64,000 bases of DNA, from assembly GCF_007741515.1 (NCBI RefSeq), contig NZ_CP036263.1:3023178-3087177 (forward strand), read 5' to 3'. Positions 37,786 to 45,109 of the stretch are shown in pieces. The translations under genes were made by a program, and so were the position numbers. Positions within the stretch are counted from its first letter, which is position 1; each line of letters begins with the position of its first letter. The notes beneath the pieces were generated by a model. That model searched no databases, was not told where the DNA came from, and saw nothing but the letters and a program-made list of their open reading frames with translations. The DNA comes from Adhaeretor mobilis. Lineage in GTDB: Bacteria > Planctomycetota > Planctomycetia > Pirellulales > Lacipirellulaceae.

Positions 37786-38886
37786 TCAGTTGCTTCCAAT
37801 GATTACGGTACAAACTCCTCCTTCTTTCTCTACGCTGATCGGGATACCCAGCAACTGCTGCAAGATACGAATGTGAGTTATTGAGTGCCGGGATAGCGGT
37901 AGTGTGCGAAATTGACTTCTCTGCTTGTCTTTCCAGGCAGCAATCCCTAACGGCAGCAGTAGCTGGTCCGCCAAGTAAGGGCCAACTGGAGCATCTGTAG
38001 CCAAGTAGTCGCGAACTTGCTTCACCGCATTATTCGCAACATGCTCAGCTTTTACACCAGGTCGTCCAAAGCCCGTGAAGACTTCTCGAACGTTTTCCGA
38101 GTGCAGTTCAATCATGACAATGTTGCCCGGTCCAGCTGAGTTATTGACTTCCTGGACATGTAAACAGTTGGGCGCCCAATTTAGTTTGTCTGCTGCCGTA
38201 TCGATCTCACGTTGGGCAATTCTGCGAGAAAGATTAGCCACAAGAGCTGTTGCAGATCGTTGCAAAATTTCGCCCCGTTTTTCTAATTGGAGCCCCCGGA
38301 GTTCAGCAGCGGGTGTAATAGCCACACTGAATCGCCCACCACCTGCGGGATAAAATCCATATTGCTCTAAACCGGCCGTAACGTTTGCTCCCATCTTCCT
38401 CAGTAGTGGAAAATAAGCATGCTCCAAAAAATCGTAAGGTGGTGACCACGGATTGTGTGTGCCACCCTCGAGTATTAGCTCTGAAGGCTGCTCCGCAATC
38501 ATTAGTGCTGGCAACACCGTCTGCAGCACCAACGTGGCACTGCCGGCAGTTCCCACTGAAAACTTGTAGTCTCCTGGCTTGATGGCCTGGGGTTGAAACC
38601 GGATCGATTGTGAGCCGATTTCATCGCCGTCCACTTCTGCCTGACCGATTTCCACTGCAGCACGCACAGCCGTCAGATGCTGACGCATCAAACCTGGCTT
38701 GTCCCGCCCAGCTCGAATCCCCTCGATCTGCACCGATTGACCTGTCACTAGCGCGAGCGCCAGCGATGAGCGGAGGATCTGTCCTCCGCCCTCGCCTTGA
38801 GATCCATTGATCAATATTGCATTGGTAGGCACGAATTCCTTGTCCTCAAACTCAGGTTTTGTATTTGCGATAATGTTTTCTTGCAA
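37786..38886 (-). CDS. rtcA: RNA 3-prime-terminal phosphate cyclase
   Basis: INGSQGEGGGQILRSSLALALVTGQ ... GFYPAGGG ... YLADQLLLPL: RtcA signature. Confidence 0.8.
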   Translation of the reverse strand: MQENIIANTKPEFEDKEFVPTNAILINGSQGEGGGQILRSSLALALVTGQSVQIEGIRAGRDKPGLMRQHLTAVRAAVEIGQAEVDGDEIGSQSIRFQPQAIKPGDYKFSVGTAGSATLVLQTVLPALMIAEQPSELILEGGTHNPWSPPYDFLEHAYFPLLRKMGANVTAGLEQYGFYPAGGGRFSVAITPAAELRGLQLEKRGEILQRSATALVANLSRRIAQREIDTAADKLNWAPNCLHVQEVNNSAGPGNIVMIELHSENVREVFTGFGRPGVKAEHVANNAVKQVRDYLATDAPVGPYLADQLLLPLGIAAWKDKQRSQFRTLPLSRHSITHIRILQQLLGIPISVEKEGGVCTVIIGSN

Positions 38887-39565
38887 GTGTAAATCGCCCG
38901 ATCCATTTGGATGCAGTTCTCTTGGCTATTGGCATCGGCTCTAGAGCTGTAATTTCTATAAGACTAGGCAAAACTTCTAGAGCCTTATAGGCGTGAAGCT
39001 TGTGGTGTCCATCGACAACATGTTGTAGGTAAGCGTCTCCAGTAGTCGCCACTATGGCGATTGGTCGACGACCTCCTTGAATCGATCTCTTGTGTTTTTC
39101 GATCGTTTGAGCATTCAGCGAAGTCAAGAAACGTGTTTCTAGCAGAAAGTTATCCGGATAAGGGTAGGCTTCCTGAACTTGGCCACCAGCTGGCATAAGC
39201 GACCATTCTTCTGGTGTGAAAAATCGGCAACGATACGGTCCATCTCGGAATAGTTTTATTAAAGGATCAAGCTGCTCGGCTAATGACACGTCCTCGCTCA
39301 TAAACCCGGAGAGGATCGTACGAATCGCGGCAAGCCTTTCTGCAGCCTCGATTTGGTTATCGCAATTAAGCATGTACTGGCCGACGCTTCCATGGCAATC
39401 ACACCAATTCATAGAAACGGGCTTCTCATTAAATAACAGAGCAGTATCAAAATCGTCGCCCTGCAGTTCGAGGATACCGTTACCACCAGTAATCTCGAAC
39501 TCTTCGACCCGTTCGCTACTGGGTAGCTGATTGCGTGGTTGTTCAGTCATCTGCTTTATCTCCAT
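38852..39565 (-). CDS. hypothetical protein (237 aa) encoded between rtcB and rtcA
   Basis: ORF only; overlaps both neighbours (translational coupling). Confidence 0.4.
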   Translation of the reverse strand: MEIKQMTEQPRNQLPSSERVEEFEITGGNGILELQGDDFDTALLFNEKPVSMNWCDCHGSVGQYMLNCDNQIEAAERLAAIRTILSGFMSEDVSLAEQLDPLIKLFRDGPYRCRFFTPEEWSLMPAGGQVQEAYPYPDNFLLETRFLTSLNAQTIEKHKRSIQGGRRPIAIVATTGDAYLQHVVDGHHKLHAYKALEVLPSLIEITALEPMPIAKRTASKWIGRFTLARKHYRKYKT

Positions 39566-43351: not shown

Positions 43352-43525
43352 ATTAAGAAAATAGCTACCAAGAGAGGGACGTAAATCCTTTCCCGCAAGT
43401 GGTTTAAGTCATTTCTAGTGCGGCTGGTTTGTGTTTTGCGATGACTGGCTGAGTCATAAATTACGATCCGTTCCGATAAGATGTTATAATTCTATATACG
43501 CACTGGATCTCGGACGGGAATTGCT

Positions 43526-45109
43526 ATGAAACAAGTTGTCTTTGGCCTATTGGGCACTCGCCTCGACCGAGGGAGCGCCAAGACCGATCGCTGGCAATCA
43601 TGGCGGCCTACGGTTGCGCTGTGTCAGCACGAAGATCTGCTCATTGACCGCTTCGAGCTCCTGTATGAGCCCAAGATTGCGGATCTGTCCAATACTGTCG
43701 CAGAAGACATTCGCTCGATTTCTCCTGAAACCGATGTGCGATTGCACGAAGTCCATTTCCGCGATCCCTGGGACCTGGAGGAAGTCTACTCAAAGCTGCA
43801 CGAGTTTATGGGTAACTACTCGTTTCGCCCTGAACAAGAAAAGTACCTGGCCAATATCACCACTGGCACACATGTTCAGCAGATCTGTATGTTCCTCTTA
43901 GCCGAATCCAGGCATCTTCCAGGCCAGCTGCTCCAAGCGTCGCCACCCAAACGCAAACAGCCAGGGGAAGGCACCTACAAGGTCATCGATCTCGACCTGT
44001 CACGTTACGACCAACTTGCTGCTCGCTTCGCCTTAGAGCAACAAGAAAGTTTGTCCTTTCTTAAATCTGGTATCGAAACGAAGAATACCGCATTCAACCA
44101 ACTGATCGAACGCATCGAAAAAGTAGCCATCCATAGTCAAGCTCCGATGCTGATCACTGGACCCACCGGCGCCGGCAAGAGCCAGCTGGCGCGCCGTGTC
44201 TATGAATTAAAACAGCAGCGTCGACAACTCGATGGAAAGTTCGTCGAAGTGAACTGCGCCACGCTACGGGGCGACCAGGCAACGTCGGCGCTGTTCGGCC
44301 ACGTCAAAGGTGCTTTCACCGGAGCGACTGGTGCTCGCGAAGGGCTGCTCCGCGCGGCCGAAGGCGGCATGCTCTTCCTCGACGAGATTGGCGAGCTGGG
44401 CCTAGATGAGCAGGCGATGCTCCTGCGAGCGATTGAAGAAAAGCGGTTTCTACCAGTTGGCGGCGATAGTGAAACTGGTAGCGACTTTCAGTTGATCGCT
44501 GGGACCAATCGCGACTTGCAGTCAGACGTCCAGGAAGGGCGTTTTCGAGAAGACTTGCTGTCGAGAATCAACTTGTGGACTTTTCGACTACCTGGTCTAG
44601 CTGAGCGCCGTGAGGACATCTCACCCAACCTTGACTATGAGCTAACCCAGTTCTCCGCAACGACAGGAAGCGTTGTGCGCCTGAACAAGGAGGCCCGTAC
44701 GCGTTTCCTTCGTTTCGCTGAGTCCGAACAAGCAACCTGGCAGGCGAATTTTCGGGATCTCAACGCCGCCATTACGCGCATGGCAACGCTGGCGGCGGGT
44801 GGTCGAATCAGCGTCGAACTCGTTGATGAAGAAATCGAACGCTTGAGCCAGCAATGGAAAAGTAATGATAATAGTAATTCAAGTAGCCTTCGAGAGCTGC
44901 AGGGCGTCGTCGACGCCCAAGAGCTTGACCGTTTTGATCAAGTTGCTTTGTCAGAAGTCATACGAGTGTGCAAAGCATCGAGCACGCTTTCTCAGGCAGG
45001 CCGAAAACTGTTTGCTATATCGCGGCTCTCAAAGGCAAAACCAAACGATGCTGACCGGTTGCGAAAGTATTTGGCTCGATTTAGTTTGAGCTGGGATCAA
45101 CTGCAGTAG
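43526..45109 (+). CDS. rtcR: sigma54-dependent transcriptional activator RtcR (CARF-like N-domain, AAA+ sigma54-interaction domain, C-terminal HTH)
   Basis: MLITGPTGAGKSQLARRVY Walker A, GAFTGA motif (KGAFTGATGAREG), LFLDEIGEL; divergent from rsr. Confidence 0.85.
   Translation: MKQVVFGLLGTRLDRGSAKTDRWQSWRPTVALCQHEDLLIDRFELLYEPKIADLSNTVAEDIRSISPETDVRLHEVHFRDPWDLEEVYSKLHEFMGNYSFRPEQEKYLANITTGTHVQQICMFLLAESRHLPGQLLQASPPKRKQPGEGTYKVIDLDLSRYDQLAARFALEQQESLSFLKSGIETKNTAFNQLIERIEKVAIHSQAPMLITGPTGAGKSQLARRVYELKQQRRQLDGKFVEVNCATLRGDQATSALFGHVKGAFTGATGAREGLLRAAEGGMLFLDEIGELGLDEQAMLLRAIEEKRFLPVGGDSETGSDFQLIAGTNRDLQSDVQEGRFREDLLSRINLWTFRLPGLAERREDISPNLDYELTQFSATTGSVVRLNKEARTRFLRFAESEQATWQANFRDLNAAITRMATLAAGGRISVELVDEEIERLSQQWKSNDNSNSSSLRELQGVVDAQELDRFDQVALSEVIRVCKASSTLSQAGRKLFAISRLSKAKPNDADRLRKYLARFSLSWDQLQ

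Follow-up and report, generated by a model that had tools for sequence, protein, structure and literature searches.

The closest described counterpart of the locus considered here is the rsr-yrlBA-rtcBA operon of Salmonella enterica (Chen 2013/2014; Hughes 2020), in which a divergently encoded, CARF-like RtcR is paired with a sigma-54 promoter, followed by genes for the Ro60 protein Rsr, a short Y RNA, the tRNA-like Y RNA YrlA, RtcB and RtcA. Operons of this type are widespread, and the genes for Rsr and the Y RNAs lie beside that for RtcB in diverse bacteria (Hughes et al. 2020, PMC7790460); Chen et al. (2014, PMC4201824) reported YrlA as a neighbour of Ro60 in 254 bacterial species and 22 phages. 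Here we describe a locus with the same parts in Adhaeretor mobilis (Planctomycetota, Pirellulales, Lacipirellulaceae), located in a window of 64,000 nt on contig NZ_CP036263.1. The window denotes the whole stretch of DNA analysed, and positions are counted from its first nucleotide. On the minus strand, a sigma-54 element is followed by rsr, a 651-nt RNA spacer, rtcB, an open reading frame (ORF) listed as 237 amino acids (aa), rtcA, a 47-aa ORF and a terminator, with rtcR divergent on the plus strand (Table 1). The locus is very likely an RtcR/sigma-54-controlled rsr-Y RNA-rtcB-rtcA operon of the Salmonella type that acts in an RNA-damage response. As such it adds another example to a well described and widespread class. 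Novel are the protein family encoded between rtcB and rtcA, the tRNA array located behind the terminator, and the recurrence of tRNA genes and arrays beside rsr/Y loci elsewhere.

Compared with Salmonella, A. mobilis has four Y modules instead of two, an Rsr of a divergent subfamily, an RtcB of the long archaeal/human type, an additional gene with a ParB/sulfiredoxin fold between rtcB and rtcA, and the 47-aa ORF after rtcA; the operon is then followed by 30 tRNA genes and by Band-7/RlaP genes. The latter elements invite comparison with two other systems. The long tRNA arrays of cyanobacteria are likewise supernumerary, consist of about 30 closely spaced tRNA genes on one strand, are patchily distributed in phylogeny, and have rtcB and a Band-7/slipin gene in their neighbourhood or regulon; they adjoin rtcB and are co-induced with it (PMC8421152; PMC10272220). 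The array of A. mobilis is physically joined to an RtcR/sigma-54 operon with Ro60 and Y RNAs, whereas cyanobacteria use the repressor TrcR instead of RtcR, and the papers on cyanobacterial arrays do not mention Ro60 or TROVE. In Band-7-associated tRNA systems, a Band-7/SPFH gene is found beside tRNA-like genes, RtcB and RlaP. As quoted in bioRxiv 10.1101/312249, Burroughs and Aravind (2016) predicted that a Band-7-associated tRNA is found beside RtcB and can be exchanged for YrlA/Rsr. A. mobilis differs in that a whole array takes the place of one tRNA-like gene, in that Band-7 comes after the array, about 7 kb from rtcB, and in that the Rsr/Y RNA and Band-7 modules coexist.

The operon and its promoter

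The divergent gene encodes an RtcR that exceeds the cutoff of the NCBIfam equivalog NF038308 (819 bits, cutoff 650, residues 1-527) and matches the Pfam models for the N-terminal domain (PF06956, 270 bits, residues 2-182) and for Sigma54_activat (PF00158, 172 bits). The GAFTGA loop can be read directly in its translation. A sequence-only reading of this DNA, made earlier by a model with no database searches, had proposed a divergent rtcR with CARF-like and AAA+ domains, and also a -24/-12 element facing it; both proposals hold. As sigma-54 element we consider TGGCAC-N5-TTGCW, in which the dinucleotides GG and GC are 10 nt apart, when it lies upstream of the gene under control and faces that of the activator. 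The sequence TGGCACGCCTGCTGCA has these properties with one mismatch to the consensus, and its 3' end lies 62 nt from the rsr ATG at 43274. The usual sigma-54 geometry would place the start of transcription at about 43324 and give a 5' untranslated region of about 50 nt.

A single near-consensus match in 64 kb means little on its own, since a scan of the whole window yields 19 matches with up to two mismatches, compared with 13.5 expected. The element becomes credible because it is conserved across relatives. The latter were collected by a pattern-limited scan (few peptide patterns) over one representative genome per species, resulting in 335 Rsr relatives, and comparisons were made on the best 80; individual loci are referred to by L numbers. 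Of the 51 relatives with a divergent rtcR, 26 have a similar element at 46-92 nt upstream of the rsr start (background 0.016 per stretch of equal length), and TGGCACGCCTGCTGCA aligns with the elements of L001, L002, L005, L008, L013 and L017. The palindrome ATGACTcagccAGTCAT (43457..43441) was considered as an RtcR binding site. It is unique in the window, occurs at a chance-level frequency and is not conserved in six relatives; no claim is made for it.

The protein encoded by rsr had been taken for a Ro60 orthologue with TROVE and VWA domains. Both are detected by Pfam: TROVE (PF05731) with 40.4 bits (cutoff 23; a partial match to residues 266-325) and vWA_Ro60 (PF25045) with 54.4 bits. The best match among solved structures is Rsr of Deinococcus radiodurans (2NVO; phmmer, E = 1.3e-20), which aligns from end to end (residues 33-509 versus 28-520) and places DVSGSM on its MIDAS motif; two bacteriophage TROVE structures and vertebrate Ro60 are matched as well. 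The criterion of Chen et al. (2014) is one or more Y RNA genes located within 4 kb on the same strand, and here four Y modules lie 76-627 nt downstream of the rsr stop. The protein most likely starts at M13 of the longest ORF, at ATG 43274, because a GGAGA ribosome-binding site precedes it, homologues have 525 aa and alignments begin there. An exact-sequence look-up of the 537-aa ORF returned no match, which is explained by the real protein beginning at M13. The PADLOC defence models found nothing for Rsr.

The assignments of rtcB and rtcA are equally consistent with the sequence-only reading, which had called RtcB canonical. RtcB scores 205 bits against RtcB of P. horikoshii, and the motifs D..C, NH, HxGSRG, HN and HGAGR are kept in the alignment to 4DWR; we take these to hold the metal-binding Cys/His/Asp residues and the guanylylated His, as in the P. 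horikoshii enzyme. RtcA exceeds the cutoff of its NCBIfam equivalog (NF003246, 430 bits, cutoff 352) and matches the Pfam models RTC (PF01137, 258 bits) and RTC_insert (PF05189, 59 bits). Its likely start is the GTG at 38832, as indicated by a ribosome-binding site and the alignment of homologues. All parts of the operon are located where the sequence-only reading had put them, except that rsr likely begins at 43274 instead of 43310, and rtcA at 38832.

Downstream of rtcA, the terminator named in that reading is present and strong, but located about 380 nt further on, past the 47-aa ORF (orf47), and not right behind rtcA. Its hairpin is kept in L085, a metagenomic contig that represents the nearest relative (Rsr 92% identical). 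In L085, the Shine-Dalgarno sequence and both termini of orf47 are also conserved; orf47, a predicted ORF, is probably the last gene of the operon. A 50-nt inverted repeat (37746-37795 and 37156-37205; 39 of 50 positions complementary, predicted duplex -63 kcal/mol) encloses this region; one arm spans the rtcA stop codon, the other abuts tRNA-Glu, and each arm also forms a hairpin of its own that is preserved by compensatory change. A conserved processing stem or the ends of a mobile element were considered as explanations and rejected: the arm on the tRNA side is a window-specific 48-nt insertion absent in L085, and no copies occur elsewhere in the window or the loci.

The layout of rtcR and rsr-Y-rtcB(-rtcA) recurs in three phyla. 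The best 80 of the 335 Rsr relatives belong mostly to Planctomycetota, Verrucomicrobiota and Acidobacteriota, and a divergent rtcR is present in 51 of them, a close downstream rtcB in at least 32; a search with the Rsr protein yields at least 8000 matches. The suggestion that the locus is a rare example outside Proteobacteria and Deinococcus is therefore to be corrected, as the layout is common in the three phyla named and the literature counts more than 250 species.

Table 1. Features of the A. mobilis operon and of the genes behind it, with positions in the window
Feature	Position	Strand	Remarks
rtcR	43526..45109	+	RtcR/CARF-like N-domain, AAA+ with GAFTGA, C-terminal DNA-binding region
sigma-54 -24/-12 element TGGCACGCCTGCTGCA	43351..43336	-	one consensus mismatch; faces rtcR
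rsr, 525 aa	41697..43274	-	TROVE ring and vWA domain with MIDAS motif DVSGSM; longest ORF (537 aa) reaches 43310
G+C-rich hairpin	41648..41685	-	right after rsr stop, without U tract; RNAfold -27 kcal/mol for 75-nt segment
RNA spacer, 651 nt	41046-41696	-	between rsr and rtcB; four tandem Y modules
Y1	41561..41621	-	minimal module: Ro-binding stem and short loop, YrlB-like; stem signature, no Rfam match
Y2	41435..41539	-	partial module: Ro-binding stem and T-arm-like hairpin, without D-arm; YrlA 36.5 bits, E = 3.6e-5
Y3	41219..41415	-	full YrlA-type, 70-nt insertion in variable arm; RF02553 74.7 bits
Y4	41070..41199	-	full YrlA-type, tRNA-like T-arm and D-arm; RF02553 71.0 bits; row in 45-module alignment
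rtcB	39543..41045	-	RNA 3'-phosphate/2',3'-cyclic phosphate ligase, archaeal/Thermus/human type; PF01139 351 bits
232-aa accessory protein ('237-aa unknown')	38852..39550	-	N-terminal beta domain of unknown fold; C-terminal ParB/sulfiredoxin-fold domain, invariant DGHHK
rtcA	37786..38832	-	RNA 3'-terminal phosphate cyclase; likely GTG start 38832, longest ORF reaches 38886
orf47, 47-aa ORF	37436..37579	-	between rtcA and terminator; good Shine-Dalgarno; gene call also in L085
intrinsic terminator	37378..37408	-	13-bp stem, 8 G-C pairs, then T run; about 380 nt beyond rtcA
disrupted tRNA-Phe(GAA)-like gene	37241..37330	-	true first array gene; 18-nt insertion in D region; aligns with intact L085 tRNA-Phe (7789-7861)
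array of 30 tRNA genes	33038..37156	-	29 anticodons, 18 amino acids; ARAGORN, Rfam
Band-7/SPFH gene	32699..31449	-	Pfam Band_7 99 bits
RlaP nucleotidyltransferase (RNA repair pathway)	31426..30410	-	Pfam RlaP; the two RlaP genes score 152 and 192 bits
DUF1559-like ORF	30413..29631	-	between the two RlaP genes
second RlaP	29634..28870	-	Pfam RlaP; the two RlaP genes score 152 and 192 bits

The Y RNA modules and the proposed course of the response

The spacer between rsr and rtcB, for which about 590 nt of structured RNA had been claimed, resolves into four tandem Y modules with stems supported by covariation. All four share the stem signature GAAUGC-N-[A/G]ACUACA ... CUUGUCG. In 64 kb this signature occurs exactly four times, in each case within the spacer and on the strand of the operon. 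Among the 80 related loci, 63 have two to six modules after rsr, usually beginning with one of the minimal class, and none has the signature on the opposite strand. Alignment of 45 full modules (RNAalifold) reveals double compensatory changes in 20 of 29 base pairs, and minimal modules from 34 loci show compensatory changes in 9 of 14 pairs. A U-rich tail closes each Y module (41200-41235, 41418-41450, 41040-41085); at Y3 the basal stem is followed by U6, similar to an intrinsic terminator. Such tails could attenuate transcription before rtcB and would then set the ratio of Rsr and Y RNAs to RtcB and RtcA.

Two results weigh against the assignment of the locus to the known type. Rsr misses the threshold of the NCBIfam Rsr equivalog NF041674 by a wide distance (76 bits, cutoff 900), and neither Y1 nor Y2 attains the gathering threshold of the Rfam YrlA family RF02553 (69 bits). 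Because of the former, we place Rsr in a divergent subfamily, outside the narrow equivalog; as judged from its sequence it is a true Ro60 orthologue at the family level. Because of the latter, Y1 and Y2 are termed Y RNA-like modules and not YrlA. The low scores of Y1 and Y2 would also be expected if the spacer RNAs were decayed tRNA genes or chance structures instead of functional Y RNAs, and YrlA can indeed be mimicked by tandem tRNAs (PMC4201824). We regard this explanation as highly improbable, given that two modules pass the curated YrlA threshold, that the Ro-binding stem is invariant in all four, that compensatory changes back the full as well as the minimal class, and that ARAGORN calls no tRNA in the spacer.

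The assignment of the parts, the conserved promoter and layout, the covariation of the Y RNA folds and the match to 2NVO support the functional reading implied by the Salmonella rsr-yrlBA-rtcBA architecture, which the sequence-only reading had likewise recognised. Signal, regulation, processing and substrates of the operon we infer by homology, on the basis of the mechanism described in PMC7790460 (Hughes et al. 2020) and PMC4201824 (Chen et al. 2014). Cleaved tRNAs would give rise to 5' halves with a terminal 2',3'-cyclic phosphate; these halves would bind the CARF-like domain of RtcR and cause its oligomerisation. Activation by such halves is known for the RtcR of Salmonella only (PMC7790460). 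The AAA+ domain would then open the sigma-54 holoenzyme at the -24/-12 element before rsr, and a single transcript would provide Rsr, the four Y RNAs, RtcB, the ParB/sulfiredoxin-fold accessory protein, RtcA and the 47-aa peptide. Rsr is expected to bind the conserved basal stem of the Y RNAs, and the tRNA-like domains of Y3 and Y4 may act as a tether or a decoy. RtcA would cyclise 3'-phosphate ends, and RtcB would join them to 5'-OH ends.

A different role of Rsr is suggested by the Rsr-Y RNA-PNPase machine of D. radiodurans, whose Ro60 orthologue (2NVO) is also encoded beside its own Y RNAs. The Deinococcus genes are not linked to those for RtcR, RtcB or RtcA, and Yrn1, the main Y RNA there, is of another type than the YrlA-type RNAs of A. 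mobilis. In D. radiodurans, and to some extent in Salmonella, Rsr is tethered to PNPase by the Y RNA (PMC4201824; bioRxiv 10.1101/312249). Accordingly, Rsr and the Y RNAs of A. mobilis might serve the decay of structured RNA with PNPase and not ligation, and their placement in the operon would reflect shared regulation only. This alternative appears rather unlikely to us, as rsr, Y and rtcB are tightly linked across three phyla and Y modules swap with true tRNAs and Band-7 in the same slot. We note that roles in decay and in ligation are not mutually exclusive.

The accessory protein between rtcB and rtcA

The sequence-only reading had listed a 237-aa unknown between rtcB and rtcA, from which the family designation used below is taken; the accessory protein itself has 232 aa. 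The protein is present and matched by no model in Pfam, NCBIfam or PADLOC, but it is not unremarkable: it belongs to a family that recurs in the slot between rtcB and rtcA. A word-seeded search returned the protein alone and made it appear an orphan; a full HMMER search rejected this, with 339 distant relatives, of which 135 have E <= 1e-10. The family is unannotated. Within it, two motifs, WxDCxGSxxQ and DGHHKLxAY, show little or no variation. The C-terminal domain has a structural match to ParB-N/Srx proteins together with a conserved motif of the DGHH(R/K) type, as expected for the ParB/sulfiredoxin fold.

Members of the 237-aa family are located directly upstream of rtcA, after rtcB, in four independent operons (the window and three others) at about 30-40% identity. 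Writing X for the family homologue, the other three are L082, with rtcR / rsr-Y/tRNAs-rtcB-X-rtcA; L083/L084, with rtcR / Band-7-tRNAs-rtcB-X-rtcA; and L091/L092, with rtcB-methyltransferase-like-X-rtcA and an RtcB 72% identical to that of the window. In L091, the small gene ahead of the family member, between rtcB and rtcA, encodes a PF10237 (N6-adenine methyltransferase-like) protein (1939-2466), and in P0276 PF10237 and a family member are fused in one 403-aa protein. A few family members are fused to ankyrin repeats or to YwqK/MORN repeats.

Known proteins of the ParB/sulfiredoxin fold bind nucleotides and transfer phosphate, and on this basis a nucleotide-dependent role of the 232-aa protein at RNA ends is a reasonable guess by analogy. 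The recurrence of the family between rtcB and rtcA makes it a candidate for a new factor of the RtcB/RtcA system. One may object that the gene is a selfish or conflict-system insertion, for example of the immunity type, placed here by chance and with no role in RNA repair. In comparison with L085, where rtcB abuts rtcA, it is indeed a clean insertion of about 720 nt; family genes are missing from all 80 Rsr loci, some members are located in small-ORF islands or unrelated contexts (L081, L090, L093), and the repeat fusions mentioned above can be read in the same direction. Nevertheless we consider a chance insertion doubtful: the same slot upstream of rtcA is occupied in four operons whose family members have diverged to about 30-40% identity, and the ATG of the 232-aa gene overlaps the stop codon of rtcB, which suggests translational coupling.

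The tRNA array and its link to RNA repair

Directly downstream of the operon, and outside the region covered by the sequence-only reading, 30 tRNA genes and further RNA-repair genes are found. Including one disrupted gene, the array occupies 4.3 kb; its spacers are mostly 1-21 nt, no gene encodes the 3' CCA, tRNA-Met is missing, and the sole Phe gene is the disrupted one, which is called by neither ARAGORN nor Rfam. Following Santamaria-Gomez (2021), a long tRNA array (L-array) consists of many tRNA genes in the same orientation, close enough for co-transcription, supernumerary, patchy in relatives, and by that definition silent under standard conditions but induced by translational stress. 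The genes considered here are tightly spaced in the same orientation. They are supernumerary, as the strain has 75 tRNA genes in total compared with 48-58 in most Lacipirellulaceae (Table S8 of PMC8303584). Furthermore, the array is found in L085 and not in L001, L002 or L088. In L085, rtcR / rsr-Y-rtcB-rtcA-orf47-terminator precedes the same array, with its genes in the same order. Between the two, the spacer from rtcA to the array reaches 83% identity; a blastn segment consisting mainly of rtcA reaches about 74%.

L085 has intact tRNA genes where the window has gaps, namely for Phe, Ile-GAU, Thr-CGU, a second Pro and Leu-UAA, and by this sequence comparison the array of the window is losing genes. 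The gaps 36166-36680, 36828-37002 and 35988-36094 match Thr-CGU, the second Pro and Ile-GAU of L085, respectively, with a T-arm remnant at 36572-36614; no Group I introns or other Rfam families were detected in the gaps. A 180-aa putative ORF with no Pfam match is located on the opposite strand (34384-34926, +) within a 628-nt gap of the array. The last array gene (33038-33110, -) is called tRNA-His(ATG) by ARAGORN, has an aberrant anticodon loop (CCAUGAC) that lacks U33, and is set 121 nt apart from the rest of the array, nearest the Band-7 gene; its product may not decode at all and be only tRNA-like. Behind the array, on the same strand, follow the Band-7/SPFH gene, two RlaP genes and two unknown genes. 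RlaP homologues also come after rtcB in L031 and L045.

tRNA genes are found beside rsr and rtcB in other loci too, in several arrangements. At least 10 tRNA genes adjoin rsr in 14 of the 80 loci, mostly from Acidobacteriota that lack rtcR, and these arrays of 10-33 genes run on the strand of rsr and stop just upstream of it (L037, L043, L051, L052, L054, L055, L058, L059, L060, L067, L072, L074, L078, L026). In L051, L052, L062 and L072, Y RNA modules are located between the last tRNA and rsr; L051 and L052 also encode a distant RtcB (28% identity) inside the array. True tRNA genes further occupy the slot before rtcB in RtcR-controlled operons: L046 (12163-12670) has six tRNAs between the Y RNAs and rtcB, L082 (3692-4399) has tRNAs and Y RNAs interleaved, and L083 (4197-4474) has tRNA-Leu(UAG), tRNA-Pro(UGG) and tRNA-Arg(ACG), with Band-7 in place of Rsr; others are L044 (11700-11773), L061, L048 and L020. 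The recurrent operon-embedded tRNAs are Arg(ACG), Leu(UAG) and Pro(UGG), with Rfam scores of 49-69 bits. L083 and L082 together illustrate that a Band-7/tRNA module and Rsr/YrlA are interchangeable in one slot. A common origin of the window array and the acidobacterial arrays was considered and rejected, as genes with the same anticodon are just 59-75% identical. Since the arrays are unrelated in sequence, their linkage to rsr is either convergent or old. We found no literature linking long tRNA arrays to Ro60 or TROVE; coverage was incomplete, and this is not proof of absence.

It is possible, as a tentative proposal, that the supernumerary array and the Band-7/RlaP genes belong to the same response as the operon, with the array providing spares or decoys once the housekeeping tRNAs come under attack. 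RNA-repair genes flank the array on both sides and on one strand, the order rtcA-orf47-terminator-array is kept in L085 together with the spacer, and the approximately 45 nt between the terminator and the first array gene leave no room, or at least little, for a separate promoter; no sigma-54 or sigma-70 promoter is recognisable ahead of the array. The proposal is also supported by the true tRNA genes inside the rtc operons of L046, L082 and L083, by the whole arrays that abut rsr in 14 other loci, and by the cyanobacterial arrays, which adjoin rtcB and are co-induced (PMC8421152). Other results weigh against it. A strong, conserved terminator divides the operon from the array; L001, L002 and L088/L089, relatives at about 80% Rsr identity, have no array; compared with L085, the array genes of the window are in decay, a state that points to weak selection; and the arrays of other phyla are unrelated in sequence, at the 59-75% identity given above.

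The terminator, the absence of the array in these relatives and the loss or disruption of several tRNAs would be expected if the array were an independent, horizontally acquired long array that is a neighbour of the rtc operon by chance, with no functional tie to RtcR, Rsr or RtcB, and that is transcribed from an unrecognised promoter of its own or largely silent. Long arrays are known for horizontal spread and poor expression (PMC8421152). We give this explanation nearly an even chance. It does not readily account for RNA-repair genes on both sides of the array and on the same strand, for a junction that is 83% identical in a second species with about 45 nt from terminator to first tRNA, or for tRNA genes and arrays beside rsr or rtcB in several phyla in differing arrangements.

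The proposal of a shared response can be extended to an RNA-damage island of about 17 kb, in which the array, as a working component of repair, has the RtcR-controlled rsr-Y RNA-rtcB-X-rtcA operon on one side and a Band-7-RlaP-RlaP module on the other. The array would be expressed by read-through or shared control and provide replacement or decoy tRNAs against anticodon nucleases, with cleavage products that could serve as the ligand of RtcR. Y RNAs, embedded tRNAs (of the b7a-tRNA type) and arrays would then represent one evolutionary series of tRNA-shaped cofactors of the RtcB system, and the ParB/sulfiredoxin-fold protein a new nucleotide-dependent factor in end healing or regulation. In this extended form the proposal is speculative, and we consider it unlikely as a whole. 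The proposal that RNAs of tRNA shape act as cofactors or decoys in RNA ligation is supported by the equivalent positions which Y RNAs, single tRNAs and arrays occupy by rsr and rtcB. The cultured strain A. mobilis HG15A2, with a long array joined to an RtcR operon, makes the roles of supernumerary arrays and of Ro60 and Y RNAs in repair testable (on these questions, see PMC8421152; PMC7790460).

Other genes of the window include a block on the plus strand (16477-27924), convergent with the repair genes, that combines NAD salvage with ADP-ribose metabolism and ends in a Tpt1/KptA RNA 2'-phosphotransferase. It consists of genes for NAPRTase, NAD synthase, the NrtR regulator, two ADP-ribosylglycohydrolases, a nucleoside deoxyribosyltransferase-like protein, an isochorismatase/nicotinamidase-like protein, a microbial PARG, an unknown 499-aa protein, and NUDIX and Macro proteins. 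A second, short RtcB (377 aa, 15636..14503, minus strand, Pfam 275 bits) is preceded by a 168-aa ORF with only a sub-threshold match to RbfA (block 14503-16139) and may represent a separate RtcB module. An unrelated cluster on the plus strand (49362-54947) resembles copper-resistance genes and encodes a P-type ATPase that has heavy-metal-binding domains, together with an outer-membrane efflux protein and a multicopper oxidase.

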